In this document: positions 1-15,540 of the stretch, piece by piece
Numbering within the stretch: the stretch's first letter is position 1
Layout of the letters: the number at the start of each line of letters is the position of its first letter
Assembly: GCA_016213235.1 (NCBI GenBank)
Contig: JACRBE010000059.1
Location: 1-61,197 of the forward strand
Source: Chlamydiales bacterium
Lineage (GTDB): Bacteria; Chlamydiota; Chlamydiia; Chlamydiales; JACRBE01
Direction: 5' to 3'
Length of the DNA stretch: 61,197 nucleotides
Made by a program: the position numbers and the translations under genes
Notes under the pieces: model-generated
The model's database searches: none
What the model was told of the DNA's origin: nothing
What the model saw: the letters and a program-made list of their open reading frames with translations, nothing else

Positions 1-447
1 CAATACGACATCAAAGTGCTCACAAGTTCCTAGTTGTATCAGGTCTTTTAAATCAATAGGGCGATTAAGGAAAATGATATTGTTTAAGTTTGTATTATCT
101 TCACAAATGGACTTTAATTGATCTCCAATAAGCGGATAGGTTGGGTTATTACCTTCAAGCATTACACAGACAGATTTGCGAAAATCACCAGCAGCTTTAA
201 GAGAGTAATAACCTTGAGCGGCACCGATGTCTAATAATGTAAACGGTCTGGTATACTGCTGCAGAACTTTTTTAATTAAAAGATAGCGTATCTCACAATC
301 ATGATGATTATTTGTTGCCGATTTTACAACATCTTCATTTATAATAATATCTTGGTATTGCTCATAACCAAATTTAGTGATATCAATAAAACAAAAACTA
401 TTTGTTGTTATTATTAAACAAAAGCATAAAAAAATGGGTCGTAGCAT
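1..447 (-). CDS. Class I SAM-dependent methyltransferase with signal peptide (partial, runs off window start)
   Basis: Not in the ORF track. Manual translation from ATG at 447: MLRPIFLCFCLIITTNSFCFIDITKFGYEQYQDII...RPFTLLDIGAAQGYYSL...VCVMLEG...CEHFDVVL. SAM motif I is LLDIGAAQG; GGGG SD-like run upstream; frame open to position 1. Confidence 0.8.
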   Translation of the reverse strand, partial: MLRPIFLCFCLIITTNSFCFIDITKFGYEQYQDIIINEDVVKSATNNHHDCEIRYLLIKKVLQQYTRPFTLLDIGAAQGYYSLKAAGDFRKSVCVMLEGNNPTYPLIGDQLKSICEDNTNLNNIIFLNRPIDLKDLIQLGTCEHFDVVL

Positions 448-518
448 ACTTTCCCCTTAACTTAAATGAGAAACAAAAGTAACCTACCATGTAGGAAAGT
501 TATTTATAAATATAAAAT

Positions 519-1553
519 GTGATTTTATCTATGCCAGCATTGAGAGTGGGCGGTGTAATCCAGCTAGTATTTTTCTATATTGTATTTTCATATAATTTTC
601 TATTCAGCGTTGAAGTTAATAAGGTGGTCATTTGGGGGCATAAACTTCATACCCATACACATTCTTATATTCATTATGGATTTTATAAGGCATTTAAACA
701 TCTTGGATATAAAACGCTTTGGCTGGATAATACAAGTGATATATCAAATCTGGATCTCTCCCAGACATTGTTTATTACAGAGCACCAGGTCGATCAATGC
801 ATCCCGCTTCGAGAAGATTGTTATTATGTTGTGCATTGTTCATCAGATGCAAAATATGATCATATAAAAGAGATAGATCATTATGTTGATTTAAAAGTAT
901 ACAAAAACATTTTTCTTCATTCAGCTACTTTAATGCAGGTAGAGCCATATATTTATTATGATTTACCAAACCAAACATTAATCATGCCTTGGGCTACTGA
1001 TTTACTACCTGAAGAGATTGAACAAAACAAGAAGTTAACGCCTTTATTAAAATTAAAGCCGGTATTACGCAATAAAAAAATATACTGGGTAGGGACTCTT
1101 GGAGGAGGGAAATTTGGTAATCACCTAGAATTAGGTGGTTTTATACGGGCATGTAAGCAGCAACACATTCCATTTATTCATTCAGATCCTTGGGCTTCTC
1201 CAGTTAGTGCTGAAGATAATCAACGCCTAATACAACGCTCATATCTTGCTCCAACTATTTGCGGAGGAATGCAACTACAACACGATTATATTCCATGTAG
1301 AATTTTTAAAAATATTAGCTATGGGCATATAGGTGTCACGAATTCAAAAGCCGTATATAATCTTTTTAATAAAAAAATAGTGTATAATCCGGACACTTTT
1401 CAGCTTTTTTTTGATGCACAAGCTAAATTAATGGAAGGAAATGTTGAAGAGTTTTATGAATTAATGGATTTTGTTAAAGAAAAACACACGTATCTTAACC
1501 GTATTCAGCATATCCTTAATTTTATTGCGCTGTTAGAACATCACCCAGATTAA
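519..1553 (+). CDS. Putative secreted GT-B-type glycosyltransferase (CgeB/Glyco_trans_1_2-like C-terminus); paralog of 7840..8820
   Basis: Hydrophobic N-terminus ending ...NFLFS; KVVIWGHKLHTHTHSYIH; C-terminal YIPCRIFKNISYG and HTYLNRI motifs. Start uncertain (GTG 519 or ATG 531). Confidence 0.6.
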   Translation: MILSMPALRVGGVIQLVFFYIVFSYNFLFSVEVNKVVIWGHKLHTHTHSYIHYGFYKAFKHLGYKTLWLDNTSDISNLDLSQTLFITEHQVDQCIPLREDCYYVVHCSSDAKYDHIKEIDHYVDLKVYKNIFLHSATLMQVEPYIYYDLPNQTLIMPWATDLLPEEIEQNKKLTPLLKLKPVLRNKKIYWVGTLGGGKFGNHLELGGFIRACKQQHIPFIHSDPWASPVSAEDNQRLIQRSYLAPTICGGMQLQHDYIPCRIFKNISYGHIGVTNSKAVYNLFNKKIVYNPDTFQLFFDAQAKLMEGNVEEFYELMDFVKEKHTYLNRIQHILNFIALLEHHPD

Positions 1554-1726
1554 TATACAACAACCTTGTATGTTTCGTTATTTTACTAAAACATCATTTT
1601 TTGCATCAAATAGGGCATTCCGAAGTAAAGATTGTGGTGTAACTTTTTAAAAACAAAAATTATTTATAAATATAAAAACACGAATAATTTATACTGTAAT
1701 CATTTTTGTAAGACATTACGTAAGTT

Positions 1727-3847
1727 ATGGTTAATTTAAATCCTGAGCAAACAAAAGCCGTAGAACATATCGAAGGTCCGCTGTTGGTACTGGCCGGCGC
1801 CGGATCTGGCAAGACAAGAGTGGTGACGGCTAGAATCATTCATTTAATAGATCTCGGAGTGCCATCGTCTGATATCGTAGCTTTAACATTTACCAATAAA
1901 GCTGCTGAAGAAATGAAATTAAGAATACTTAAGTCTCATCAGCATAGGGTATGGGTCTCTACCTTTCATTCATTATGTGCAAATATTTTAAAAGAGTCTA
2001 TTCATCATTTGGGATATAAAAACACCTTTTCCATTTATGATGAACAAGATAGCGAATCAGTCATTAAACATATTCTTCAATCGTTTGATGTTAAAATAGA
2101 AAAAAGTCTAATAAAGACAATAAAGCAATTTATTTCGAATGCGAAAAATCATTTTCTTGGTCCAGAAGATATAAAAGAGATGGATTCTGTTGGGGATATT
2201 GCGATTAAGCGAATATATACACAATACCAACAAGCTCTTAAAGAATATAACGCTCTTGATTTTGATGATTTACTATTTTTAACTGTGCAATTATTTAGAG
2301 AGCATCCAGATGTTCTTGCATATTATCAAAAAAAGTGGCCCTTTCTATTGATTGATGAATATCAAGATACAAACCATGCACAATATCTCATTGCAAAGAT
2401 GATTGTAGAAAAAAGTCATAATATTTTTGCAGTAGGAGATCCCGATCAGTCGATTTATTCCTGGAGGGGAGCCGACATTAATAATATTTTACGTTTTAAA
2501 GAAGATTTTCCAGGTGCTACGGTAATTCAGTTAGAGCAAAACTATCGAAGTACCTCCAATATATTAAATGCTGCCAACTCGTTAATTAAAAAGAATACAA
2601 AGCGATATGACAAGAACTTATGGAGTACGTTAGGAGAAGGGGATAGAATTGTATTTAAACAACTGGATAATGACATAGAAGAAGCCAGGTTTGTTGTTAA
2701 CAAGATTAAAGATTATCATAAAAATTATCATGCATCTTTTAATGAAATAGCGATTTTTTATCGCACCAACGCGCAATCTCGTATTTTTGAAGATTATTTA
2801 TTAAAGGAGAATATTCCCTACAAAATTGTTGGTGGTGTTTCTTTTTATGATAGGAGGGAAATTAAAGATTTGATAGCCATTTTGAAATTGCTTGTTTCTC
2901 CTGATGATTTTGTCTCTTTTATGCGAGTGATTAACATCCCAAAACGGGGAATAGGAACAGTAGCAATAAAAAAAATTCAGGAGATCGTGTCCGTTTACAA
3001 CATCCCTGTGATTGATTTTTGTAGAAGGGTTGCAAGCAATGAGATGAATAAGAGCGGGCTTTCTGCAACACAGAAAACCGGTATTATAGATTTCATGCAA
3101 GCATTTAGTCAGGTGCAAAGCTCATCTAAAAAAAATAGCGCTATTGATGAAATAATTAAGAATATTATCAATCAATTTCAGATCCTCAATTATCTAAAAG
3201 AGGATCCGGAGACATTTGAAGATAGAAAAGCAAACATGGATGAGTTTATTACGAAGGCAACAGAGTATAAACTGCTTTCTCCGGAAAAATCTTTGAAAGA
3301 TTTTTTAGAAGATATCTCACTGAACAAAGCTGCAATCGAAAATACAAATGCAAATGATCAAATTCAGCTAATGACCCTACATAATAGTAAAGGGCTAGAA
3401 TTTGATTTGGTATTTATGTGTGGTATGGAAGAGGATTTATTTCCTCATGTGAATGCCAGAGATTCTTTTGATGATATTGAAGAAGAGAGAAGGCTTTGTT
3501 ATGTTGGAATGACAAGAGCAAAAAAACATTTGTTTTTAACAGCTTCTAAATACCGAGTACAGTGGGGTGTGCCAAAATATACAAGAATGTCGCGATTTAT
3601 TTCTGAAATTGATCATAACTTTATTTCTGCACAGCAACATATTGCAATAGCCAGTGATGATGAGGAAGGATTTGCGGTGGGATCTAATGTATTTCATGCA
3701 ACATTTGGCAAAGGTACCATAAAAAAGAAATACAATACCTCTTTAGGGATCACTTACGATGTGTATTTTCTTGAAAGCTGTTCTTCTAAGACACTTGTTG
3801 CAAAATATGCAAAATTAACGCTCATTAATCGACTTATAACCAACTGA
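1727..3847 (+). CDS. uvrD: ATP-dependent DNA helicase UvrD/PcrA
   Basis: AGAGSGKT Walker A, DEYQD, VGDPDQSIY, QNYRS, TLHNSKGLEF, EERRLCYVGMTRA, and a C-terminal Tudor-like VFHATFGKG. Confidence 0.97.
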   Translation: MVNLNPEQTKAVEHIEGPLLVLAGAGSGKTRVVTARIIHLIDLGVPSSDIVALTFTNKAAEEMKLRILKSHQHRVWVSTFHSLCANILKESIHHLGYKNTFSIYDEQDSESVIKHILQSFDVKIEKSLIKTIKQFISNAKNHFLGPEDIKEMDSVGDIAIKRIYTQYQQALKEYNALDFDDLLFLTVQLFREHPDVLAYYQKKWPFLLIDEYQDTNHAQYLIAKMIVEKSHNIFAVGDPDQSIYSWRGADINNILRFKEDFPGATVIQLEQNYRSTSNILNAANSLIKKNTKRYDKNLWSTLGEGDRIVFKQLDNDIEEARFVVNKIKDYHKNYHASFNEIAIFYRTNAQSRIFEDYLLKENIPYKIVGGVSFYDRREIKDLIAILKLLVSPDDFVSFMRVINIPKRGIGTVAIKKIQEIVSVYNIPVIDFCRRVASNEMNKSGLSATQKTGIIDFMQAFSQVQSSSKKNSAIDEIIKNIINQFQILNYLKEDPETFEDRKANMDEFITKATEYKLLSPEKSLKDFLEDISLNKAAIENTNANDQIQLMTLHNSKGLEFDLVFMCGMEEDLFPHVNARDSFDDIEEERRLCYVGMTRAKKHLFLTASKYRVQWGVPKYTRMSRFISEIDHNFISAQQHIAIASDDEEGFAVGSNVFHATFGKGTIKKKYNTSLGITYDVYFLESCSSKTLVAKYAKLTLINRLITN

Positions 3848-3922
3848 TGCCAAAACAGCAGACGAGAATGTTCTTTAAAGAATATCAAATCTAAACCTCT
3901 ATTAAAGAGCAGGAGAATCTCT

Positions 3923-4867
3923 CTATGATTTAGAAGCAAAGTGTTGTCTTTTTGCTTCTTCTATTTTTTCAACCCAATATTTCATATAAAGTTTTCTCAT
4001 ATCGTACTTTTTATTTTTGATTTCTTGATATTTTGCATTAAGAAAATCTTCTGTGACGTCACTCCAATCATCTACTATTAATATAGGCAACCCTTGGCAC
4101 AAACCATCTAAGGCCGAAGATTTAACAATCGGAATAGCTCCGACTAGCAAAGCCTCCCAATGTCTATAACAATCAAGCATATCGCCCCAAGGAGAGAGTA
4201 CAAATTTATGATTCGCCATTTCTTCCATATAATCTCTGAAAGGCTTTGGATTGGATGCTGTGACATATGACATGCTTGCAAATCTGTCATGTATAGCCCC
4301 CCGCCCATCATATCTTCCAGGATGAACGGTAAAATTCATATATAGAAGATTTGTTTTAGGTTTGGTCTTAAGTTGTTCAAAATATAGGTTTATTTTCTTT
4401 CTCTGAAAAAATATATTTTCATCTCTGAGTATTCCAAGAGGGATAATTGTGCATTTTGGAAACAATATAGCATCACGGTTACAGTTTGCAAACCATGCAA
4501 TCAACTTCGGATCATTAATATATTTCAAATCTCTCATTGTAGGTCCATGATACAGTGTAACTAGAATATAAGGATTTTTGATTCTTGGATGAATTTCTTC
4601 AAAAAAACTATCAATACTATAAGCCGTAGCAAATATTACACTTCCTTCAGGAACTTGTTCTGGTTCAAAAGGAGTTGCATTTTTAAAATTATGGGCTGCG
4701 CCATCTGAATGATTTGCGTAAGCAAAGTCACAGATATTCATCCAAGTCCACCGTTGAACAAATATTTCTTCCAAATTTTCATTTTTTATTTTTGGGAATA
4801 AACTATTGGACTCTGCAAATCCATAAATGGTTGTTATAAGAAGTAATGCTACAAATAAGTTCTTCAT
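3923..4867 (-). CDS. Secreted exostosin/GT47-like glycosyltransferase
   Basis: Signal peptide MKNLFVALLLITTIYGFA; exostosin-type motif HKFVLSPWGDMLDCYRHWEALLVGAIPIV. Confidence 0.7.
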   Translation of the reverse strand: MKNLFVALLLITTIYGFAESNSLFPKIKNENLEEIFVQRWTWMNICDFAYANHSDGAAHNFKNATPFEPEQVPEGSVIFATAYSIDSFFEEIHPRIKNPYILVTLYHGPTMRDLKYINDPKLIAWFANCNRDAILFPKCTIIPLGILRDENIFFQRKKINLYFEQLKTKPKTNLLYMNFTVHPGRYDGRGAIHDRFASMSYVTASNPKPFRDYMEEMANHKFVLSPWGDMLDCYRHWEALLVGAIPIVKSSALDGLCQGLPILIVDDWSDVTEDFLNAKYQEIKNKKYDMRKLYMKYWVEKIEEAKRQHFASKS

Positions 4868-5859
4868 ATTTTTTCTGATCTGTTATGGCGGCAAGGCCAT
4901 GTGATATTGTTTTTTGGCAAATAAATAGATTGAATATATGGATTAAAAAAAGTCACGAAATCAGCGATATTACTTGACGAATGAATAAATAAGTCGCACT
5001 TTGAAAGCAACAAACAATCCATAAGAACCCCTTTTCCTCCAAAATAAGCTGGTTTTTTGCGATGGAATTCAGCTGGATGAGTCTTCCAATAATCAGCACT
5101 ACCATAGATTAGATGAGGTTCTTCACGATAGTTACTTCGAAAAGCAGGAATGTGTAAAGCAATACCAGGAAAGTATTTATCAAACTGCTGCACCACATAA
5201 TGGCTATCTGTAGCCAGGAAAATTCTAATATTATTTTTTCCCTTTTCTTGTATTAACCTTTTGGTTTCTAGAATATAATCTTCAACTGTTGGCGTTCCTT
5301 TAGGAGATTCCATAGCGTGGTCACACCCATAACGGACATGAACGCCTATGCAGTAATATCTTTCCATATTTTTTTCATAAAACCGGTCTGTTTCATTAAG
5401 AATCTCATCTTTCACTTTGATATGCTTTTTAATCACATCATGAATAGCCAATCTATAAGGGAAATATTTATCATAAGACATCCACTGTTCAATACAACCT
5501 TGATCGTGCAGTGCGTGATATGATGAACCAGAAATAAGCTTATTGGAGATTTCTATATCTAGGGAAATTTCCTTATTGATCAAGATAGAATCGAAATAAA
5601 GATCCCATCCATTCTCATGAGGGTTATTCTTAAAAGGGAAAAATTCTTGAGTCCAATCAACATAAATTCTCTGTAAATTTTTATGATCAAAAAAGATAAT
5701 ATTATCTACTACCTTATGAAGTTCAGCAAAGAATCCGGCTCCCAAATGAGAACAAATTGTTAATTCTGCAGGAAGGCACTCTTGAGTTTGTTTTGCAAAT
5801 CCGCATATAGAAAGCACCAGAAATAGCAGGTAATGGTTTTTTATGACCAGTTTCTTCAT
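4864..5859 (-). CDS. Secreted NodZ/GT23-like (O-FucT-like) fucosyltransferase
   Basis: FucT motif I IGVHVRYG, motif II IFLATDS, motif III DCLLLSKCDLFIHSSSNI; N-terminal GAGFFA; signal peptide ending CGFA; 4-bp overlap with the downstream gene. Confidence 0.75.
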   Translation of the reverse strand: MKKLVIKNHYLLFLVLSICGFAKQTQECLPAELTICSHLGAGFFAELHKVVDNIIFFDHKNLQRIYVDWTQEFFPFKNNPHENGWDLYFDSILINKEISLDIEISNKLISGSSYHALHDQGCIEQWMSYDKYFPYRLAIHDVIKKHIKVKDEILNETDRFYEKNMERYYCIGVHVRYGCDHAMESPKGTPTVEDYILETKRLIQEKGKNNIRIFLATDSHYVVQQFDKYFPGIALHIPAFRSNYREEPHLIYGSADYWKTHPAEFHRKKPAYFGGKGVLMDCLLLSKCDLFIHSSSNIADFVTFFNPYIQSIYLPKNNITWPCRHNRSEKI

Positions 5860-6099
5860 AATTACTGCCCCTTAACAAATGGCACACCGGGGATCTTATA
5901 CTATGATTTTCTAAAATTTCAAGGCATTATTTGAATGCTCATTAAATTTGAGAGCAAAAGATCTTGGGTTGTTGATAGCAAATTAATTTAAAATCGCACA
6001 GACGTTTCTTTACATAACTTTAGGAGTGTTATAATTAAAAAAACATTGCTTGTGAATTAGTGAATTTCCTAATCTTAAAAATTATAACCAAAGTTTTTT

Positions 6100-6777
6100 A
6101 TGAAAAAACTACTATTCTTGTTAATTTTTCCCTGCTTAGTGTTTTCCTTAGATAAGGATTACATCATCATTACATTAGGAGAAAACTGCGTTGTTACAGG
6201 GAGTATGGAATTACTTAAAATTAAACAAGAATCCTATCCTTTTGAATGGAATATTTGTAGTTTTTCTTCTGTATACGAATGCATAAAAGATGATTTCAAA
6301 GATTTTACGAATCCTGATTATTTTACTCCATATATAGACAATCGAAGCCCCGTTAATAGATATGGTATTTGCCTTGCTCATAATTTTCCAATCGTGCTTG
6401 TTGGCATAAACAAGGAAGGAATCGAGGTTTATAAACTAGATCCCAACTGGCGACACTACTTGCCAGCTGTACAAGAAAAATATCAACGTAGAATAGATCG
6501 ATTTCGACATGCATGTCTTTCTGATAAAAAGGTTTTCTTTATTCGATATCCTGGTGTGTCCAAAGTTGAAGCTACACAATTTTCCAAACTAATTTCCTCT
6601 TTGTATCCGGATCTTGATTTTACTTTTCTTTCTGTTAATATTAACCCCATACCTCCTCGTGAAAAGGAACAATGGAATATACCTCACGTAAAGCTCTATT
6701 ATATTACCCCATCAACTTCAGAAAAAGAATGCACACAATGGAAAGAGATTATGACAAACGTTGGTGTTTTACATTAA
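6100..6777 (+). CDS. DUF1796 family protein (annotated putative papain-like peptidase), with signal peptide
   Basis: ITLGENC, SYPFEW, KYQRRIDRF and VFFIR motifs; signal peptide MKKLLFLLIFPCLVFS. Confidence 0.75.
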   Translation: MKKLLFLLIFPCLVFSLDKDYIIITLGENCVVTGSMELLKIKQESYPFEWNICSFSSVYECIKDDFKDFTNPDYFTPYIDNRSPVNRYGICLAHNFPIVLVGINKEGIEVYKLDPNWRHYLPAVQEKYQRRIDRFRHACLSDKKVFFIRYPGVSKVEATQFSKLISSLYPDLDFTFLSVNINPIPPREKEQWNIPHVKLYYITPSTSEKECTQWKEIMTNVGVLH

Positions 6778-7046
6778 CCAAATGGAAATACATAATTCCA
6801 TTATGAAAGGTGAACATAAAGCTTTTCTGTTTTTATTTTCACGCTTCGTTATTTCTCCGTTTATTTCCTGATTAGGGAACAAAACTTATTGACAATATAC
6901 GAAATATTTCCAATAGTTCTAATGCATAATTAGTGAATTCAAGGTGTTTTGAACATACTCTTTTTGAAGCAATTAGAATAGAAAACGAGTATAGAAGCAG
7001 GTATGTAAATCTTAAATAAATTGTTATTAAATATTTGGAGAAAGTT

Positions 7047-7829
7047 ATGTATAAAAGATTGTCTTATGCTTTACCTATATTAGTGTACTTGTTATTTCCA
7101 ATGGCATCTGAAGCGGTCATTTCAGATCTTAATAAGTATCAAATGTTTTTGGAGAGTGGCACTTATGACAATTTAGATTGGACTATCTTTGCCGCTAAAC
7201 CAAAATCTAGATTTTATACATTAAAAAGAGCCTTTGAAGAGTTTGCAAATAATAATGGAAAAACCATTGTTGAACTAGGCACTTTAAGAAGTTTTGTTGA
7301 TGGGAAATACATCGGATGTAATTCTGATGATACTAAATATTGGGAATCAAACAATCCTGAGAAATGGGATTGGGGTGCTGGTTTTTTTTCCTATTTAGCT
7401 GCAGCTTGTTTGTCAGAATTAAATCCGACGATTCATACAGTAGATATTATTTCTAGCCATATTAAGAGATGTCAAACCATTACTGCACAGTTTAAGCATC
7501 TTTTTACGTATCATGTATCATCTTCAGAAGATTTTTTAAATCAATGTAAATCACAGTCGATTGACTTGCTTTACATGGATACAGGCGATATTTATCCTAT
7601 AGAACCTTCTGCACAGCTGCATTTGAGGGAAGCAAAAATTATCGTAAAAAAGGATCTAATCCCTAGCGGCGGTCTGATTTTAATTGATGATGTAAAACAT
7701 CCTGTACCGATTAAATTAGACAATGATAAAACTTTCATGGGGAAAGCAAAATACTCTTTGCCATATTTGTTATCGCATGGATTTGAAATAATAGAAGATG
7801 AATTTCAAGTGTTGCTTAGAAAAAAATAA
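7047..7829 (+). CDS. Secreted class I SAM-dependent methyltransferase (Methyltransf_24-like)
   Basis: IVELGT, IDLLYMD, GGLILIDD; ATG at 7047 has a GGAG SD; signal peptide ending ASEA. Confidence 0.8.
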   Translation: MYKRLSYALPILVYLLFPMASEAVISDLNKYQMFLESGTYDNLDWTIFAAKPKSRFYTLKRAFEEFANNNGKTIVELGTLRSFVDGKYIGCNSDDTKYWESNNPEKWDWGAGFFSYLAAACLSELNPTIHTVDIISSHIKRCQTITAQFKHLFTYHVSSSEDFLNQCKSQSIDLLYMDTGDIYPIEPSAQLHLREAKIIVKKDLIPSGGLILIDDVKHPVPIKLDNDKTFMGKAKYSLPYLLSHGFEIIEDEFQVLLRKK

Positions 7830-7839
7830 TAGGATTACT

Positions 7840-8820
7840 ATGAAACATATTTTTTTATATCTATTAATAGTTATTGCAGTACCTACTTTTTCTATGGACT
7901 TTGATAAAGTAGTTATTTGGGGGCATAAATTACACTCCCATACTCATTCTTATATACATAATGCTTTTTATAAAGCATTTAAGAGCCTTGGATATGCTAC
8001 CTATTGGGTTGATGAGCATGATGATGTATCTAAAATAGATTTTTCCCATTCTCTTTTCCTTACAGAAGGGCAAGTTGACAATAATATTCCTTTGCGTGAC
8101 GATTCATTTTATATCTTACATAACTGCACTTCACATAAATATCGTCAAATCATAAAAAATAAACGTTTTATTACTTTACAGGTTTATACTGATGATGTGC
8201 TGACACGTCCAACTGCTATACGAGTCTCTCCTTGTATTCATTATGATTATGCCGGCAGATGTCTTTACATGCCTTGGGCTACGGATTTATTACCATCAGA
8301 AATTGAAGCAATTCAACAGAATATAACAAAAATCACTAAACAGCCTATGATTGCCTGGATAGGAACTATTAGTGATGGAGAGTTTGGAAACATTTCTGAG
8401 TTAATGCCTTTTGTGGAAGAAGCACGTAAGCTTGGCATGACCTTTATACGCAAACAACACATCAGTGATAAAGAGAATAAAAACATCATTGCTCACTCAT
8501 TATTGGCTCCTGCCATTGTCGGAAAGTGGCAAAAGGAAAAAGGGTATATTCCTTGCAGGATTTTTAAAAATATCAGCTATGGCGGTTTAGGAATAACCAA
8601 CTCTCTTCGCGTATGTGAGCTTTTTAATAATAATATTATATACGACCCTGACCCAAGAGTCTTATTTAAAAAGGCATATCATGCAGCTCGTGCTTTAGAC
8701 CATGATACATTGGAATCTCAAATGGAATTTGTTAAAGCGCATCATACTTATATTAATCGAATTAATACAATATTAGAATTTATCGATCAATTAGATGAAA
8801 GGAATGTATTAGACAATTAA
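7840..8820 (+). CDS. Putative secreted GT-B-type glycosyltransferase; paralog of 519..1553
   Basis: MKHIFLYLLIVIAVPTFS followed by KVVIWGHKLHSHTHSYIH, MPWATDLLP, YIPCRIFKNISYG, HTYINRI; ATG at 7840 has an AGGA SD. Confidence 0.65.
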   Translation: MKHIFLYLLIVIAVPTFSMDFDKVVIWGHKLHSHTHSYIHNAFYKAFKSLGYATYWVDEHDDVSKIDFSHSLFLTEGQVDNNIPLRDDSFYILHNCTSHKYRQIIKNKRFITLQVYTDDVLTRPTAIRVSPCIHYDYAGRCLYMPWATDLLPSEIEAIQQNITKITKQPMIAWIGTISDGEFGNISELMPFVEEARKLGMTFIRKQHISDKENKNIIAHSLLAPAIVGKWQKEKGYIPCRIFKNISYGGLGITNSLRVCELFNNNIIYDPDPRVLFKKAYHAARALDHDTLESQMEFVKAHHTYINRINTILEFIDQLDERNVLDN

Positions 8821-8836
8821 TTTTTTTTATTATTGA

Positions 8837-9736
8837 ATGAAAGAGAAAATCATGCGAATTATTGGAATATTATTTTTATTTATTACACTAACTTGTAGCT
8901 ATGCTAATGAAAAAACACTCATTATTTCTCATCATTATGCGCAACCATTTTTCATTGAGCTGCAAGCGAAGACATTTCGTAAATTTATTAAAGATGACTA
9001 CGAATTTGTTGTATTTAACGATGCTAAAACCAGGGAATTAGAGCAGGAAATTTATCAATTATGTAAAAAGTACCAAATTCGTTGTATTCGTATTTCACCT
9101 GAAATACATAATCGGCCTTATTTATTTCGATTAAAGGGAGAAGATTATAATCATCCTTGCGTGCGTTGTGCCAATGTAGTGCAATACTCATTAGATATCT
9201 TGGGTTTCGATTATCCCGGGAAGGTAGTGATTATAGATTCTGATATGTTTCTAACAAAACCATTTTCTTTTGTAGAATATATGAATGGATATGATCTTGT
9301 TGCAGTACCGCAATCAAGAGATAATGGTGTAAAATATATTTGGAATGGAATAATTATGTTTAATATGCCGACACTACCTAATAGAAAAATGATGAATTTT
9401 AACTGTGGACGAATCGATGATGCACCAGTAGATGCTGGCGGGTATACTCATTATTATCTATCAAAGTATGCAGACATAATTAAAATAAAGGAAATAGGCC
9501 CTGCACATTTTTCTCATACGATTGATGATTACCATAATGGAGCGCTAGATTCCAATATGAATCATTTAATTCCTCTCATCGAGCTAGATCCTCCATCAAA
9601 TATGGAGACGTTTTTACAGGGGGCGATATTGCATTATAGAGGAGGGGGTCTTTGGGATCCGAAGCCAACTTCATACTATCAAAGAAAGAACAATTGTTTG
9701 CGAACATATATAGAATATATTCTTGAAAAAGAATAA
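8837..9736 (+). CDS. Secreted DxD-motif (GT-A-like) glycosyltransferase
   Basis: FVVFNDA, VVIIDSDMFL (DxD), YIWNGI, DAGG, ILHYRGG; signal peptide from ATG 8852, MRIIGILFLFITLTCSYA. Confidence 0.55.
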   Translation: MKEKIMRIIGILFLFITLTCSYANEKTLIISHHYAQPFFIELQAKTFRKFIKDDYEFVVFNDAKTRELEQEIYQLCKKYQIRCIRISPEIHNRPYLFRLKGEDYNHPCVRCANVVQYSLDILGFDYPGKVVIIDSDMFLTKPFSFVEYMNGYDLVAVPQSRDNGVKYIWNGIIMFNMPTLPNRKMMNFNCGRIDDAPVDAGGYTHYYLSKYADIIKIKEIGPAHFSHTIDDYHNGALDSNMNHLIPLIELDPPSNMETFLQGAILHYRGGGLWDPKPTSYYQRKNNCLRTYIEYILEKE

Positions 9737-9738
9737 AA

Positions 9739-10911
9739 TCAATTAGATAAGTTCAATGTATTATACTCTTTTAACACATGATATAAATATAAATATGTTG
9801 TGTTAATATCGAGATATTGTTTAGCGAACTCTTTGCCATTTATGGCAATTTGCTTTGCTTTTTCATCATTTTCTTTTAACCACATAATTATATCCGCTAA
9901 ATCACTGCAATCTGTTTGATAAGGTATATAATGTATATAAGGTTTTAATCCGGAATAATACCATTGAATATTTCCGCTATTTTGTTTAATAGACACACAA
10001 TTTGATCGTAATATCCACTGACACCGATGAAATCCATTTGAATATCCATCTACATCTATTAAATATTTGTATACACATGCATCATAGGGGAGAATTCCAT
10101 GAGAGCATAACAGAGGAGCAAAAGAATGCATTTCTTGACATATATGCGTTTGCTCTGGTGAAAAGTTTGTAAATTTTGCCCAAATAAGATCAGGATGATC
10201 AAGTGCAAATAAAACGAGTGTTGCACGACAGTTCATGCGCCAGGTCTTTTCATTGTTGAAATCTTTTCCGTTAGGGGCCCCAAGCCAGAAAGCTTTTGCA
10301 AGTTTTTGATCCCACGGAAAATCTTCGCTTGCTTTATCAATTTGCAACATTAAACTTGGCCTATCTTCCCAGACAGCAAACCAATCAGGTATGGTGATGT
10401 AGTTAGATGCATAATGTTTAGAAAAACATAAGATCGGATATTGTGACTGTTTATGGTGTACACCATCTCCAACGTCAAGAATATAATCCCCGGATGCGAT
10501 TCCAAATTCCGGCTGAGTTAAAATCCAATGCAAAGCCATAGCATATTCAGCTGCATTAGAGGGGAGTCTTTCGCTGTTATTACATCGCACATATAATTTA
10601 CCAGTACGAATGCGAAATTGTACCAATGTATTACGAGAATTAAAAAAACACTCTTCTAATTCTTCTAATGAAAAAGGATGAAAATTGCTTAGCTCTTGTT
10701 TAATATTAGCCAGCATCCAATCTGGAAGCTCATCGGTTTTTTGTACAGATGGTTGCAGAGTTGCAAAAGCGTTACTGTATAAAGATTTGAATCGATCTTT
10801 AACATATTCTTCAACATCGTTAAATTCATAATAAATGCGTTCATTAGCATTAATAGTTGAAATAGATATAATCAAATAAAAAATAAAAGTCTTTTTTCGA
10901 TATATTAGCAT
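9739..10911 (-). CDS. Secreted GT90 / CAP10-domain glycosyltransferase (POGLUT/KDELC-like)
   Basis: PWDQKLAKAFWLG, YKYLIDVDG, QWYYSGLKPYIHYIP, WLKENDEKAKQIAINGKEFA; signal peptide ending TINA. Confidence 0.85.
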   Translation of the reverse strand: MLIYRKKTFIFYLIISISTINANERIYYEFNDVEEYVKDRFKSLYSNAFATLQPSVQKTDELPDWMLANIKQELSNFHPFSLEELEECFFNSRNTLVQFRIRTGKLYVRCNNSERLPSNAAEYAMALHWILTQPEFGIASGDYILDVGDGVHHKQSQYPILCFSKHYASNYITIPDWFAVWEDRPSLMLQIDKASEDFPWDQKLAKAFWLGAPNGKDFNNEKTWRMNCRATLVLFALDHPDLIWAKFTNFSPEQTHICQEMHSFAPLLCSHGILPYDACVYKYLIDVDGYSNGFHRCQWILRSNCVSIKQNSGNIQWYYSGLKPYIHYIPYQTDCSDLADIIMWLKENDEKAKQIAINGKEFAKQYLDINTTYLYLYHVLKEYNTLNLSN

Positions 10912-10955
10912 TTTTAATTCTAAGTAAAATAATATCTTATATTAATAATTTTTTA

Positions 10956-11816
10956 TTAGTTATTAATATATGATTGCAAATATTTCTCCACCAAAGAAGG
11001 GTGATGCTCGATGATCCAGTCATCGACTTCTTGCCAAAATGACGGAGGCAATTTCTTTTGATGATATATCAAGGACTGTGTTAAAGAGTTATCTTTTGTG
11101 CTTTCGCTTTTACCGAAATTTTGTTCAAATAACCTGATGGATCTTTCCTGATGAAACTCCAACTTTTCAAGAAATTCATCAATATCAGGATGAGCTTGTC
11201 CAAGAAATTGTACAAGTTGTATTAATACTGGTTTGGGATTTAACATGAGATCTTCATAATAGATAAGTAATCTGTTATGTTCAGGCCATTTATCATAGAG
11301 GTAGATATTAGAAAAATAAGCACAATCCTTATCGAATAACTCCCCTTGAATTCTATTAGGCAGTTTCCATCTTTTATAGCTGCACTCTTTATAGTTGCGA
11401 AGTAATAAAATAAGCTTATCTTTCGTTGCATTGAAATTTTTATTAAGCATTTTATAAACCCTATTCATGTAACTGGGATCATGGCATTTCCAAATCATTG
11501 ATGCAAACAGGTCCGTATGTAAATCTTGATAAGTGAATCCAATTGGTAAATTAGCAAGTCTGAGATCGGTAGACTGCATGGTAGGTCGTTTTGTTAAAGA
11601 TTCAATACAATACCTGCACCAGGTATTACCGGAGTGTATTTCAGACAATAAAAAGGTTACATCTTCTTGATCTTTATTATATAATGATAGTGTTTGGAAT
11701 AGCTGCAGCCTTGTAAGTGGGTCAATCAAGGATCGGTTCTGAATGGCAAAGCTTAATAAGGGATGAATGACAGCAAATACAAAAAATGCATATCGAAAAT
11801 ATCTACAATTTAACAT
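10956..11816 (-). CDS. Secreted sulfotransferase-domain protein
   Basis: 5'-PSB-like SEIHSGNTWCRY, KCH, 3'-PB-like ILLLRNYKEC, LLIYYEDL; signal peptide ending LSFA. Confidence 0.7.
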   Translation of the reverse strand: MLNCRYFRYAFFVFAVIHPLLSFAIQNRSLIDPLTRLQLFQTLSLYNKDQEDVTFLLSEIHSGNTWCRYCIESLTKRPTMQSTDLRLANLPIGFTYQDLHTDLFASMIWKCHDPSYMNRVYKMLNKNFNATKDKLILLLRNYKECSYKRWKLPNRIQGELFDKDCAYFSNIYLYDKWPEHNRLLIYYEDLMLNPKPVLIQLVQFLGQAHPDIDEFLEKLEFHQERSIRLFEQNFGKSESTKDNSLTQSLIYHQKKLPPSFWQEVDDWIIEHHPSLVEKYLQSYINN

Positions 11817-11934
11817 GTGAGCCTCCTAAATACAAAGTTCAGGCTTTTCTGTATGCCAACAGAAGATATGCAGAATCCAACTAACATTTTTCTCTAATGT
11901 TCCTTTCAAGATACACATACTTTTGTAATAAGTA

Positions 11935-13539
11935 TCATTTCTTTAAAGGAGAATATGGTGGTAATGCACGTACATATTTATCTAAATAACGTTGTAATTC
12001 CATACTTACCTGATGATCGCTAATAGGATTCCTATCGTTATATATGTATAGTATTTTAGAAATAAACTGATAATGATTAGGCCCGCAAAGCTCCATCATA
12101 GGAATCATAGCTGCCATATCCCAGGTCATTTCCAGAAATTTGCCATCATACATAAAATTCTCTTTCTTCAGGTTGTTGAATAACCAGCATCTAAAAGTTT
12201 TCAAGTGAGAAGGGATGTTTTGCCATTTTCTATATGCGTTTTTTGCATTGATATGGTAAGGATAGTCTCGACAAAACCCTAGAACATGACTGTTTTTTTC
12301 CATATATTGACCATAGGTGAGCCATACATCTTTATTTGATTTGCGATAAATGCGGTCTAAATAAGAAAGAACATGTTTGTTGGCGAGCTCATCGTCTCCA
12401 TCTAGAATGACTACTACATTATTGGGCGGTACAAAGCGATGAATAGTGGTATAATAGTTGTAAGCAGCTCCCCTGCGCTCTGCATTTTGAATAAACGTCA
12501 CTCTATGTGTATTGTTTGTTTGCTGAACATAGCGTTGTACTTTTGTAAATGTGTCGTCTTGAGAGCAGTCATCAATGAAATAAATATGAAAATCACTATA
12601 TTTTTGCTCCAGGGCGCTTTTGATATTATCAATGCAGTAGCTTGTATTATTATAGGAAGCGATTACAATGGAAAAACCTGTAGAAGGAGGTTCTGTTTTG
12701 GAAATAATTTGTGGTAAGGACGTGAGAACAGGATATTTTGGTAGTGTTCGGATGTATATATCCAAATCTTTTTGTAGTGTTTTACTAACTCTGTGGTCGC
12801 TAATAGGGTTGTTGTCATTGTAAGTGTATAAAACATCTTTAATAAAACGGAAATTAGGCCCACACATTTCCATCATAGGGAGCATCATGGCCATATCCCA
12901 AGTCATAGGATAAAATTCACCATTATATTTTAGATCCTCAATTTGAATTTTTTTAAAAAGCCAGGAATAAAACGTTCTTAAATGGGATGGAATATGATGC
13001 CATTTACGATAGTCTTGATTTTGTACAATCTTTTCCGGCATAGGGGAACAAAAGCCGATATTTTTCGAGTTTTTCTCCTGAAATTGCCCGTAGGTTAACC
13101 ATACCTTATTATTTTCATCGGAGTACACTTTATTTAAATAGCTTAGCACATTGGAATGAGCTAGCGCATCATCTCCATCCAGTAATACAATGATATCATC
13201 ATCATCGGTATGTTCGTAGATAGAATGAAAAATATTCTTTAGCGCACCGCTTCGAGTAGGGTTATCTATAATGGTTAAGATGTCTTTTTTAGGAGAAGCC
13301 TCAATGATACAGTTAATGATATCGCTTGTAGCATCTGTAGAGCAATCATTGATATAAATGATTTTGTAGTTTGTGTAATTTTGATTAAGGGCACTTTCAA
13401 TATTCCACTTTGCATAGGCTTCATTATTATAAGAAGGAATAATGATAGCCATCGGCTTTTCAGAGGTAGTAGAAAAGAGAGACGAGATTAAAACTGCAAA
13501 TAGTATTGTAAATATAGAGCTTGATATCCATTTGTTCAT
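11935..13539 (-). CDS. Secreted glycosyltransferase family 2 with two tandem GT2 domains
   Basis: Two copies each of I-SYNN, I-DCS-D, LDGDD-L, VWLTYGQ, IPSHL-TF, MTWDMA and YND-NPISDH; hydrophobic N-terminus. Confidence 0.9.
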   Translation of the reverse strand: MNKWISSSIFTILFAVLISSLFSTTSEKPMAIIIPSYNNEAYAKWNIESALNQNYTNYKIIYINDCSTDATSDIINCIIEASPKKDILTIIDNPTRSGALKNIFHSIYEHTDDDDIIVLLDGDDALAHSNVLSYLNKVYSDENNKVWLTYGQFQEKNSKNIGFCSPMPEKIVQNQDYRKWHHIPSHLRTFYSWLFKKIQIEDLKYNGEFYPMTWDMAMMLPMMEMCGPNFRFIKDVLYTYNDNNPISDHRVSKTLQKDLDIYIRTLPKYPVLTSLPQIISKTEPPSTGFSIVIASYNNTSYCIDNIKSALEQKYSDFHIYFIDDCSQDDTFTKVQRYVQQTNNTHRVTFIQNAERRGAAYNYYTTIHRFVPPNNVVVILDGDDELANKHVLSYLDRIYRKSNKDVWLTYGQYMEKNSHVLGFCRDYPYHINAKNAYRKWQNIPSHLKTFRCWLFNNLKKENFMYDGKFLEMTWDMAAMIPMMELCGPNHYQFISKILYIYNDRNPISDHQVSMELQRYLDKYVRALPPYSPLKK

Positions 13540-13542
13540 AAA

Positions 13543-14277
13543 TTACTTCCTCATTTCGGCATGGTTTTTGTCTAAAGCTAAGAGTTTTTTCTCATAGGGC
13601 AGGTTCCAACTTTCTGGATAACAATAAGATGGGTTTAATATTTTTGTGGGAGGATTGTTGATAAAGTATCTGTTGAGATGGCTTTCGTCATGCCAAACAG
13701 CGATGAAGTTTTTTGTTAGATCCGCTTCTATATTGTTGGAAAGAGTCCCACAAAGTTTAACAAATTCTTCCTTGTTTGCTCCATAAAAACCACCGGCAAA
13801 GTAATAAGATCCTTCATTATCATTAATACAAGCCATCGAGATAGGATTGGTTTCATAAGATCCGCGTTTGCCCACAAATCCGGGATGCTGAGTGGCTACA
13901 CGATCGGAAAGGATTTCAGAGCCAACATCTGCAACAAAAAGCATGTCTGCATCACTTGCAAAAATATAATCTAAATCGTTAAAAGCATCTTTATTGTTGT
14001 AATAAACGCTAAATCGCATCATGGTATCATGTGGCCATCCTAGCCTTTTTTGTTCAATACGAACAACATCTTTTGCGGGTTGCAATTGTTGATCAGTAAA
14101 AACAAAGTAGGTTACTTTATGATCAGTGCAAAAATGTTTTCTTGCTGATTCGATAAACGTTTCTGCATAGGTGGCATATTTTCCTGTAGCCATAATACAA
14201 AGACCCACATTTTTGCATTCGCTAAGAGTTACAATTGAAAGAAAACAAGAAATCAGAGAGATTATTAGCTTACGCAT
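13543..14277 (-). CDS. Glycosyltransferase family 6 (ABO-like alpha-1,3-GalNAc/Gal transferase) with signal peptide
   Basis: ATGKY, FIESARKHF, YFVFTD, DADMLF, QHPG, YFAGGFYG, WHDESHLNRY, ILNPSYC, KNHAEMR. Confidence 0.93.
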   Translation of the reverse strand: MRKLIISLISCFLSIVTLSECKNVGLCIMATGKYATYAETFIESARKHFCTDHKVTYFVFTDQQLQPAKDVVRIEQKRLGWPHDTMMRFSVYYNNKDAFNDLDYIFASDADMLFVADVGSEILSDRVATQHPGFVGKRGSYETNPISMACINDNEGSYYFAGGFYGANKEEFVKLCGTLSNNIEADLTKNFIAVWHDESHLNRYFINNPPTKILNPSYCYPESWNLPYEKKLLALDKNHAEMRK

Positions 14278-14304
14278 GATTTAACCCAACTTTTTAATAA
14301 AAAT

Positions 14305-15540
14305 ATGCTGGATAAAATAATTAAATTTGTCAATATTTCTTTCCTGTTTCTATTTATGATTCAAGCAGATATTCGCCTTGGTGTAGATCGTTTTTTTACT
14401 GATGGATTTGCTTTAGAAATTAAAGGAAAAAACGTAGCCCTTTATACGAATCATACAGGAATTAATTCAGAGAGAAAAAGTACCATTGCATTATTTCGGG
14501 AAAAGTCGGGGAAAGATTTTCAGTTTGTTGCCATTTTTACACCGGAGCATGGCATTAACGGTAGCAGTTTTGCTAATGAAAAAGTAGATTCTCAAGTGGG
14601 AAAGATACCCATTTACAGTTTGCATGGTGATGTGCGCCGCCCGAGCGAATCAATGCTAAAAAATGTAGAGGTCATTGTTTGTGATATTCAAGATATTGGT
14701 GTTAGATCTTATACCTATGCAACAACGCTATTTTATATCATGGAAGAAGCGGCTAAAAAAAAGATAGCAGTTGTTGTGTTAGATAGGCCCAATCCACTTG
14801 GAGATGTAGTAGATGGACCTATGTTAAATGATAAATATAGATCATTTGTTGGACATATCAATGTTCCGTATTGTCACGGGATGACGCTGGGTGAACTTGC
14901 TATGTTTTTTAATGAAGAATATAACATACGTGCGGCTCTTAAAGTAGTATCGATGCAGGGATATAAAAGAGATATGGTGTTTTATGAAACAGGTCTTTCA
15001 TGGATTCCAACAAGTCCCCATATTCCGGAAGCAGACACCCCTTTTTTTTATGCAGCTACAGGGCTAATGGGCGATCTTAGCCTGGTGAATATTGGTGTTG
15101 GTTATACACTTCCATTTAAGATAGTGGGTGCGCCCTGGATTGATGCAGATCGGTTAGCAAAACTATTAAATGATCAGAAACTGACAGGAGTTTATTTTTC
15201 ACCGTTTCATTTCAAACCTTTTTTTGGTTTGTATAAGGGAGAGGAGTGTCATGGAATTATTATCCATATTACAAATGCCAAAGCATTTAAACCGCTAATT
15301 GTGCAGTATGTTCTTTTAGGAACGCTGAAAAATATGTATCCCGACATTGTAGAAAAAAAATTAAAAGAGCTCCCGCTGCAGAAAAAAGAAGCTTTTTGTA
15401 AGACGACAGGGGGAGAGGAGATTTACTCTATGCTCGTGAATGAAAAGTATGTAATCTGGAAATTGATGGAACTTCACAAGAAGGAAAGAGCGGAATTTGT
15501 CTTAAAAAGAGAGAAATATCTTGTGCCCGAATACAAATAA
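14305..15540 (+). CDS. namZ: Exo-beta-N-acetylmuramidase NamZ / YbbC (DUF1343)
   Basis: TNHTG, FTPEHG, DIQDIGVRSYTY, LDRPNPLG, HGMTLGELA, WIPTSPHIP. Confidence 0.9.
   Translation: MLDKIIKFVNISFLFLFMIQADIRLGVDRFFTDGFALEIKGKNVALYTNHTGINSERKSTIALFREKSGKDFQFVAIFTPEHGINGSSFANEKVDSQVGKIPIYSLHGDVRRPSESMLKNVEVIVCDIQDIGVRSYTYATTLFYIMEEAAKKKIAVVVLDRPNPLGDVVDGPMLNDKYRSFVGHINVPYCHGMTLGELAMFFNEEYNIRAALKVVSMQGYKRDMVFYETGLSWIPTSPHIPEADTPFFYAATGLMGDLSLVNIGVGYTLPFKIVGAPWIDADRLAKLLNDQKLTGVYFSPFHFKPFFGLYKGEECHGIIIHITNAKAFKPLIVQYVLLGTLKNMYPDIVEKKLKELPLQKKEAFCKTTGGEEIYSMLVNEKYVIWKLMELHKKERAEFVLKREKYLVPEYK

Follow-up and report, generated by a model that had tools for sequence, protein, structure and literature searches.

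To our knowledge, bacteria that glycosylate outside the cytoplasm do so from lipid-linked donors or sucrose, nucleotide sugars, S-adenosylmethionine (SAM), ATP and NAD(P)H being regarded as cytoplasmic. A stretch of 61,197 nucleotides from a Chlamydiales bacterium (contig JACRBE010000059.1 of assembly GCA_016213235.1; this whole stretch is referred to as the window and its source genome as G000) raises the question of whether this always holds, as positions 1-14277 carry a cluster of 12 glycan-related genes whose products begin with what appears to be a Sec-type leader peptide. An earlier, sequence-only reading had taken this cluster for an exported, Golgi-like glycosylation system. Judged by sequence comparison, the observation is real, far beyond chance and part of a trait of two phyla, Chlamydiota and Dependentiae; export via Sec is predicted from the leaders, and the gene kit appears to resemble the glycosylation clusters of Megavirinae and the glycan islands of phages more than it resembles Golgi enzymes.

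Leaders were called by a hydropathy rule of our own, which looks for an n-region that is basic or neutral, a hydrophobic window free of charged residues and small residues at (-3,-1), and flags proteins with a score of 7.5 or higher. The cluster consists of the following genes.

1..447, minus strand: SAM-dependent methyltransferase with leader (phrog_9361, E 6e-5; leader score 10.6); gene cut by the contig end.
519..1553, plus strand: putative GT-B glycosyltransferase with leader, paralogous to the 7798-8820 protein (46% identity to its mature part); no Pfam match.
1727..3847, plus strand: uvrD helicase, a leaderless housekeeping gene embedded in the cluster, outside the kit and used as a synteny marker.
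3923..4867, minus strand: RXYLT1/GT47-like glycosyltransferase with leader (RXYLT1_C, E 9e-10; Exostosin/GT47, only E 6e-5).
4864..5859, minus strand: NodZ-like putative fucosyltransferase with leader (NodZ, E 5e-11); two further paralogues in G000.
6100..6777, plus strand: DUF1796 papain-like protein with leader (PF08795, E 2e-14).
7047..7829, plus strand: Methyltransf_24-type methyltransferase with leader (PF13578, E 8e-5, below cut-off).
7840..8820 (longest open reading frame 7798-8820), plus strand: putative GT-B glycosyltransferase with leader (Glyco_trans_1_2, E 3e-4, below cut-off).
8852..9736, plus strand: GT-A fold DxD glycosyltransferase without a Pfam family, with leader (model pLDDT 93; DxD conserved).
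9739..10911, minus strand: GT90-family glycosyltransferase with leader (PF05686, E 2e-29); leader-bearing homologue in the related genome G001.
10956..11816, minus strand: sulfotransferase with leader (Sulfotransfer_1, E 8e-7).
11935..13539, minus strand: tandem GT2-GT2 glycosyltransferase whose N-terminus is a long leader or an anchor (PF00535 in two stretches, E 1e-34).
13543..14277, minus strand: DxD-type GT6 (ABO-related), a predicted alpha-GalNAc transferase, with leader (PF03414, E 4e-46).

All 12 genes other than uvrD pass the leader rule, as compared to 0/28 cytoplasmic controls from the same window; the earlier claim that every gene of the first 14.3 kb except uvrD starts with a hydrophobic leader thus stands. 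Each leader consists of a basic n-region, an uncharged run of 14-23 residues and a small-residue (-3,-1) site, followed by the catalytic domain. Their median score is 9.5 and their median run 17 residues, against 8.7 and 17 for 22 outer-membrane or periplasmic comparison proteins that were themselves drawn from rule-passing proteins. Throughout the genome the rule flags 157 of 1304 open reading frames; the corresponding enrichment of the cluster (Fisher p = 6e-12) is overstated because the cluster genes were probably acquired together. A GT28-like gene at 36.5 kb, one of the 28 controls, to which the sequence-only reading had pointed as a leaderless contrast within the window, does fail the rule, with a score of 7.1 (against the threshold of 7.5) that comes from its first beta-strand. 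The likely starts of three cluster genes are 7047, 7840 and 8852 rather than those of the longest open reading frames; the 519-1553 leader is the least canonical of the 12, with one basic residue and a start uncertain among 519, 531 and 546. No twin-arginine consensus was seen in the 12 leaders, and TatC had no match in any of the five genomes searched for it; without TatC, cofactors cannot travel out bound to the enzymes. A signal peptidase I gene is present in G000. Contigs of run X1, which may be the source sample and hence not independent, span 30/30 bins of positions 1-15000 with no listed differences, and scans for promoters and terminators gave no excess over shuffled sequence.

Could the N-termini instead be uncleaved anchors that tether an ordinary pathway of the cytoplasm to the membrane's inner face? 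The cofactor problem would then be solved, no disulfide bias was seen (below), and 9 of the 41 glycosyltransferase genes at the syntenic loci of four relatives do look like uncleaved anchors, with a long helix followed by basic residues. Basic residues, however, lie N-terminal of the helix in 12/12 cluster proteins, for which the positive-inside rule would place the domain outside. The uncharged runs equal those of outer-membrane and periplasmic proteins in median length and end at (-3,-1) sites a few residues ahead of the first catalytic strand, and lipobox variants exist, with lipoprotein-type leaders on 6 of the same 41 genes. We consider the anchor explanation very improbable.

The family labels proposed from the sequence alone were upheld by Pfam for GT6, the tandem GT2, GT90, NodZ, DUF1796 and Sulfotransfer_1; the GT47 label was weak, RXYLT1_C being the stronger match, and the two genes described as GT-B paralogues are indeed 46% identical, that at 7840-8820 having a Glyco_trans_1_2 match that stays below cut-off. 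A full-length homologue (39% identity) of the truncated 1-447 protein matches the WbdD methyltransferase domain weakly (E 1e-3). With regard to the DxD protein, the alignment-based model reached a pLDDT (predicted local distance difference test) of 93, compared to 34 for a single-sequence model, and all PDB matches listed by Foldseek are glycosyltransferases, although weak ones (best E 2e-6, TM up to 0.49); no significant match came from comparing profiles of the DxD and GT-B families with solved structures. The GT6 protein has the PF03414 domain, the DxD and a WHDESH motif and no C-terminal membrane tail, which places it in the DxD clade of CAZy GT6; it matches BoGT6a at E 2e-50 and human GTA at E 2e-38, its DxD motif reads DAD, and its small-residue donor pocket is like that of both. 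PaGT6 of Parachlamydia acanthamoebae, which belongs to this clade, was shown in vitro to use Mg or Mn in transferring GalNAc to H antigen (PMC3516806). From the donor pocket and from PaGT6, alpha-GalNAc or alpha-Gal transfer is predicted for the protein described here; both are minimal DxD-type chlamydial GT6 proteins, PaGT6 with metal-dependent GalNAc transfer to fucosylated acceptors, and the accounts differ in that the part of PMC3516806 consulted mentions no signal peptide and no gene cluster. Membership of the narrower bacterial subfamily NCBIfam NF041524 was rejected (score 210, cut-off 250).

The leaders recur among homologues in other bacteria. GT6 homologues pass the rule in 95/120 cases, and most of the misses visibly have a leader or a truncated start; leaders were likewise found on 106/135 homologues of the tandem GT2 protein, 21/25 bacterial homologues of the 7840-8820 GT-B protein, 20/26 bacterial homologues of the DxD protein, 10/11 homologues of the 7047-7829 methyltransferase and, within GT6 loci, 9/12 homologues of the 3923-4867 protein. 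Just 1-2 of 6 DUF1796 homologues satisfy the rule, and 9 of the best 150 50%-cluster representatives of the GT-B family bear a leader. Additional leader-bearing sulfotransferases occur in G000, G001 and G002. By contrast, the viral homologues are leaderless (GT-B pair 0/15, DxD protein 0/8, GT2 0/14, gmd 0/24); 3/83 viral GT6 proteins were flagged, all three of them false positives on the first beta-strand, and 11/769 open reading frames were flagged on the viral contigs around GT6. The N-termini of the viral homologues coincide with the predicted mature starts of the bacterial proteins, and mean column identity in GT6 is 0.30 in the leader versus 0.72 in the mature part. From these alignments the leader appears as an add-on, separable from the fold, variable in sequence and constant in character; in every comparative test run (homologues, viral relatives, controls and column identity), the leaders behaved as genuine.

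These viral relatives also shift the likely affinities of the kit. The sequence-only reading had stressed Golgi-like, eukaryotic families, an emphasis that we abandon, as the close leaderless relatives of GT6, the tandem GT2, the GT-B pair, the DxD protein and the 3'-phosphoadenosine 5'-phosphosulfate (PAPS) synthase described below are phage and giant-virus proteins; the GT2 domain had no plasmid match. The homologues in Megavirinae are taken to work in the host cytoplasm. Fibril-glycosylation clusters of Megavirinae (e.g., Moumouvirus australiensis ma457-ma468 and Cotonvirus ORF712-728) combine glycosyltransferases, a sulfate adenylyltransferase/APS (adenosine 5'-phosphosulfate) kinase, a sulfotransferase, papain-like proteins, dehydratases and reductases much as the present kit does, and the Tupanvirus cluster is alike in its sugar methyltransferases and UDP-glucose dehydrogenase (PMC10117803). 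Here, in contrast to the leaderless viral proteins, single-domain enzymes with Sec leaders are encoded at a syntenic site of a bacterial chromosome. Phage glycan islands (cyanophage P-SSM2 type; phrog_3317 GT6) share a DxD-type GT6, the GT-B pair, the DxD protein, GT2 and gmd at 25-55% identity and differ in that their enzymes are leaderless. The kit works like a giant-virus or phage glycan island without being one: it is chromosomal, syntenic and leader-bearing. A search of the full-text literature, with most subscription papers and all supplements outside its scope, found no description of Sec-tagged glycosylation clusters in Chlamydiota or Dependentiae, and the part of PMC4451638 consulted contains nothing on bacterial glycosyltransferases.

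In this family and its sister family, the kit has a syntenic position, with uvrD, namZ and groESL nearby (topA too in the relatives), and a content that differs greatly from genome to genome. The claim of leaders in the cluster held; the leader-bearing kit extends beyond this cluster and, outside chlamydiae, into Dependentiae. Around GT6, in a sample of 78 loci, 146 of 308 open reading frames were flagged in chlamydia-labelled and 157 of 241 in Dependentiae-labelled loci. Recurring families include GT2, GT6, GT11, GT32-like, GT10, GT25, GT92, GT61 and STELLO-like glycosyltransferases and, beside these, FkbM and other methyltransferases, sulfotransferases and DUF1796. Of 151 genomes in a phylum sample, 35 contain the GT2 family; in family f35, probably Chlamydiaceae, it was found in none of 27 genomes. 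A linked priming transferase, flippase, polymerase or ABC exporter of O-antigen or capsule type is absent from positions 1-14277, as the sequence-only reading had stated; genome-wide this does not hold, since a priming sugar transferase, Wza and a Wzc-like open reading frame lie on other contigs. A relative (G001) has a Wzy_C-like gene near the syntenic locus, and 5/78 GT6 loci contain Wzx-like genes. We also observed that a leaderless conventional set coexists with the kit (G000:C52:3505-7965 and C35:1485-4271), comprising a UDP-glucuronate epimerase-like protein, Wza, a Wzc-like protein, a priming sugar transferase and a UDP-glucose dehydrogenase; a chlamydial origin has been proposed for plant UDP-glucuronate 4-epimerases (PMC3220709).

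What would such enzymes use as donors outside the cytoplasm? Outside the cluster, the window contains, among others, the following genes, one of them for a donor-making enzyme.

14305..15540, plus strand: NamZ exo-beta-N-acetylmuramidase with leader, next to the cluster in this genome and in four relatives; it is probably a normal periplasmic enzyme and serves as a synteny marker.
21105..22202, plus strand: leader-bearing protein of no recognised family, overlooked in the earlier note (no informative Pfam, NCBIfam or PHROG match); its homologues are present in 14/78 GT6 loci, in G035 two genes from GT6.
34095..35192, plus strand: GDP-mannose 4,6-dehydratase (gmd) with leader, likewise overlooked (TIGR01472 above cut-off).
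36498..37766, minus strand: the leaderless GT-B (GT28-like) protein, with a weak N-terminal match to diglucosyl-diacylglycerol synthase (E 6e-4).
44851..46443, minus strand: nucleotide (ATP/ADP) translocase, named from sequence, which marks an energy parasite; three more paralogues in G000.

The window also carries, at 17688-20870 (minus strand), an orphan of 1060 amino acids that is leaderless, has a Ser/Pro/Thr-rich C-terminal third and no Pfam or NCBIfam match; it is a candidate type III effector, and relatives hold shorter, unrelated-looking open reading frames at the same position. Two overlapping genes at 55351-57532 (plus strand) resemble an AbiEi/AbiEii type IV toxin-antitoxin pair, although the second is longer by an additional C-terminal portion.

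The GDP-mannose 4,6-dehydratase (GMD) leader begins at ATG 34095 behind a purine-rich, ribosome-binding-like site; its score of 7.1 is just short of 7.5. GMD bears a leader in 10 of 18 gmd-bearing genomes, and the leader state of gmd and fcl is concordant in all 12 genomes that have both (4 both, 8 neither), by inspection also where they lie on different contigs; this concordance was read by eye, the rule being wrong for Fcl in 3/12 cases (2 leaders missed, 1 false flag). No fcl match was found in 6/10 genomes with leader-bearing GMD versus 0/8 with leaderless GMD (p 0.013, with related genomes not independent). A bifunctional GMD, as known from a chlorovirus, or another reductase is an alternative explanation for this gap. 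In G001, which is 97% complete, there are two NodZ-like genes, yet no gmd or fcl match; together with the fcl gap, this points to an outside supply of donors. A single origin of the leader-bearing GMDs was not retained: a tree of 33 GMDs, which has no outgroup, a weak backbone and one mislabelled row, needs 4 label changes (shuffled mean 9.9). Separately, a second leader-bearing gmd copy (L075, G004:C3:8038-9096) has three stops and lies beside other leader-bearing glycan genes, an indication that the kit turns over.

Other donor-making steps bear leaders as well. The PAPS synthase of G000 (contig C34), a bifunctional ATP sulfurylase/APS kinase, is leader-bearing, like its counterparts in G001, G002 and G014; the G010 enzyme is leaderless; 13 of its best 120 relatives were flagged, and the sole named non-chlamydial relative among these 120 is a leaderless Fadolivirus protein at 54% identity. 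Leader-bearing UDP-glucose dehydrogenases, GalE-like, RmlB/RmlD-like and other epimerases recur across the 78 GT6 loci, and leaders in G000 extend to further NodZ-like, GT10 and GT32-like genes, sulfotransferases and methyltransferases. For metK, there was no match in the incomplete G000 or in G001, G003, G004 and G005; G002 has one. The suggestion of host-supplied donors can be kept in part: an outside supply fits the fcl and metK gaps, and PAPS could be made by the bacterium, as G000 encodes its own leader-bearing PAPS synthase, besides a leader-bearing GMD. UDP-glucose auxotrophy was considered and dropped, as GalU had no match in 41 genomes but UDPGP-type enzymes were found in 5/5; the generalization that all pyrophosphorylases are leaderless was likewise dropped for Dependentiae-like genomes, where 3/10 have an in-frame hydrophobic extension before an internal Met.

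A number of normally cytosolic enzymes of G000 outside glycan metabolism were also seen with leaders, i.e., thiamine pyrophosphokinase, SAM decarboxylase, choline-kinase-like and APH-like kinases, a PfkB kinase, a P-loop kinase, a HAD phosphatase, a DUF952-peptide deformylase fusion and a 2-oxoglutarate-Fe(II) oxygenase (starts at C6:2102, C15:489, C11:4421, C6:23064, C51:25887, C35:15037, C56:37246, C56:10506 and C51:40610). These leaders suggest that metabolism may be outsourced more widely.

The best reading of these data places the action of the enzymes outside the bacterial cytoplasm, as had been proposed; the compartment, and whether the target is bacterial or host, cannot be read from sequence. 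More specifically, we favor the explanation that Sec-exported enzymes, working in the periplasm or in the lumen of the vacuole, coat the bacterium's own envelope with a glycan that bears fucose, methyl and sulfate groups, while the host supplies ATP, SAM, NAD(P) and sugar nucleotides; we consider it a little likelier to be right than wrong. A viral-type glycan-building kit would have been retargeted to the Sec pathway via added n-h-c leaders. That the enzymes would cross the inner membrane unfolded, be cut by signal peptidase I and fold outside the cytoplasm we regard as highly probable; once folded, they would have to find NAD(P), ATP, SAM and sugar nucleotides there. In an intracellular energy parasite, host nucleotides should occur in the space outside the inner membrane, because their route to the inner-membrane translocases crosses the periplasm. 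Translocases of the TLC family (E <= 1e-20) were found in 34/40 GT6-carrier genomes versus 0/14 controls, in a survey of 40 of the 77 GT6-carrying genomes; the 6 carriers with no match are small genomes lacking LpxC, whose relatives score near the E cut. The exported enzymes would then complete the donors and extend the glycan one sugar at a time, fucose among them, with GT6 placing an alpha-GalNAc cap; methyl and sulfate groups would be attached as well. The least certain steps are the acceptor, which may be the bacterium's own envelope (surface proteins or lipids), and the site, which may be the periplasm or, after passage through a type II secretion system (T2SS), the vacuole lumen. The product would coat the infectious particle and serve its entry into protist hosts or its protection inside them, like the fibril glycans of giant viruses. 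The envelope as site is favored by the tethered glycosyltransferase forms at the syntenic loci, i.e., the lipoprotein-type and anchor-like genes among the 41.

Several points weigh against this explanation. The wider 78-locus sample has 3 lipoprotein-type leaders and 12 anchors versus 541 soluble-type leaders, and lipoprotein leaders (3/556) were discarded as a general feature, being confined to this family and its sister. In the anchor class, basic residues follow the helix, which would also fit a cytoplasm-facing domain. No collagen-like, mucin-like or Ser/Thr-rich exported acceptor stood out in G000, an even-cysteine test showed no disulfide bias in leader-bearing glycan proteins (0.47-0.55 vs 0.49 expected) and was uninformative, and the regeneration of NADPH in the periplasm is unexplained. 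Bacterial donors do exist, as chlamydial ManC (10/10) and UDPGP-type enzymes (8/8) are leaderless, and the absence of ManC had to be given up as a sign of host GDP-mannose (3/10 genomes with leader-bearing GMD vs 5/8, p 0.34; one query was used, to which other pyrophosphorylase types are invisible). G000 is 81% complete (1.47 Mb), which makes its absences weak. As to the leader calls, approximately 9 of 131 flagged proteins scanned against Pfam were, by reading, false positives on Rossmann strands or mis-called starts, and the 22/22 pass rate of the exported controls is circular and shows likeness of leaders only. The background in Dependentiae is high, with predicted signal peptides on 44% of C. 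destructans genes; this organism has no LPS (lipopolysaccharide) genes, and "glycosyl" is absent from the main text of its description (PMC6561590). Finally, soluble Sec substrates of Chlamydia trachomatis reach the inclusion lumen and the host cytosol (PMC6717882). As a side observation on acceptors, leader-bearing collagen-repeat proteins adjoin the kit in 5/78 loci, mostly in Dependentiae (e.g., L178:773-1711), and are candidates.

Another explanation is that the enzymes are Sec- and T2SS-secreted effectors which draw directly on host cofactor pools, in the vacuole or the cytosol of the host, and modify acceptors of the host or of the vacuole membrane, so as to remodel host glycans or camouflage the vacuole. 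The leaders are almost exclusively soluble and cleaved in type (541 vs 15 tethered), and CPAF, HtrA, CT311 and CT795 take the Sec route to the lumen or host cytosol (PMC6717882). A search for a T2SS, which had been put forward as a check, located a T2SS locus in G000, with a secretin and a pseudopilin identified by Pfam and flanking ATPase-like and GspF-like open reading frames identified by reading, and each of 5 small carrier genomes without LpxC has two secretins. A NodZ-like gene lies approximately 5 kb from the G000 locus; this leader-bearing NodZ/FUT8-like gene (G000:C26:10883-11806) keeps its place beside an RsmD-like gene in G001 and G002. The needs for NAD(P)H, ATP and SAM would be met most simply in the cytosol, the working place of the viral homologues, where a host enzyme could also complete the pathway of leader-bearing GMD if fcl is missing; other normally cytosolic enzymes of G000 bear leaders too, such as thiamine pyrophosphokinase, SAM decarboxylase and the choline-kinase-like and PfkB kinases. 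However, the lipoprotein-type and anchored paralogues (15/41) would remain on the bacterium, no host-targeting repeat or adaptor domains were seen on the kit enzymes, and a chain of at least 10 soluble enzymes, of a content that varies per genome, resembles surface-antigen variation and would be favored by a confined space. We consider secreted effectors unlikely, if less so than anchors.

A further alternative, a strict Golgi analogue, would keep donor synthesis in the cytoplasm and export the donors to periplasmic enzymes by SLC35-like transporters of the drug/metabolite transporter (DMT)/EamA type, possibly to decorate lipooligosaccharide or a Wzy-dependent polysaccharide. In eukaryotes, the endoplasmic reticulum (ER) and Golgi use type II glycosyltransferases and SLC35 transporters, and GMD, Fcl and PAPS synthase are cytosolic. 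The two would be alike in placing Leloir transferases, sulfotransferases and certain interconverting enzymes beyond a membrane, on its trans side; the present systems differ in having mostly cleaved, soluble enzymes (541 soluble-type vs 12 anchor-type in the 78 loci; in the cluster, the tandem GT2 protein is the one plausible membrane anchor among the 12), in the leaders on GMD, Fcl and PAPS synthase, and in having no conserved linked donor transporter. One EamA gene of G000 (G000:C33:5303-8102; weak matches to Nuc_sug_transp, E 5e-5, and TPT, E 3e-6) is co-oriented with NodZ/FUT8-like and leader-bearing sulfotransferase genes, and G000 has 13 EamA-domain matches, but this arrangement is not kept: two G000 EamA queries found no homologue in the 78 GT6 loci, where DMT-like proteins make up just 1 of 17 multi-pass proteins. 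The leaderless chlamydial pyrophosphorylases, the presence of LpxC, a priming transferase and Wza in G000, and the combination of leader-bearing NodZ-like genes with leaderless gmd and fcl in G011 and G021 would fit donor export. Conversely, LpxC had no match in 23 of the 40 carriers searched and therefore LPS cannot be the general acceptor, and with an exported PAPS synthase and NAD(P)-dependent enzymes, ATP and NAD(P)H would also need an export route. We regard this analogue as quite improbable.

A coat built by exported enzymes on host-derived cofactors would have its closest parallel in the glycogen synthesis of C. trachomatis, in which a nucleotide-sugar pathway runs outside the bacterium, in the vacuole lumen, on host UDP-glucose delivered via SLC35D2; it differs in using type III secretion, other enzyme families and a storage homopolymer as product (PMC4829429). 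The closest logic is that of lumenal glycogen synthesis and the closest gene kit is viral; the kit described here combines both. A bolder version, to which we lend tentative credence while thinking it somewhat likelier to be wrong than right, would make the periplasm of environmental chlamydiae and Dependentiae a prokaryotic Golgi, with a complete Leloir pathway, donor synthesis included, in a periplasm that the host would supply with ATP, NAD(P)(H), SAM and sugar nucleotides; envelope proteins would be glycosylated, methylated and sulfated in transit, and the kit would be exchanged with giant viruses and phages and between phyla, as a possible route by which lumen-targeted enzymes such as the DxD-type GT6 reached eukaryotes. 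If true, this would be categorically new.

The sequence-only interpretation was thus right on export and too narrow on origin and donors, because of the viral relatives and the leader-bearing PAPS synthase and GMD. If the export of these enzymes is true, a Sec-exported multi-enzyme Leloir pathway with donor-making steps of its own would break the rule that such chemistry is confined to the cytoplasm, and energy parasites would use the space between their own and the host cytoplasm as a metabolic compartment. The proposal lends itself to direct tests, as biochemical activity is established for a Parachlamydia GT6 belonging to the same clade and there are cultured members of both the environmental chlamydiae and the Dependentiae. 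On both groups it predicts a surface glycan that is variable and so far undescribed; in Dependentiae, LPS genes were not found. The proposal would link such glycans to giant-virus coats and may offer many small, soluble glycosyltransferases outside the assigned families.

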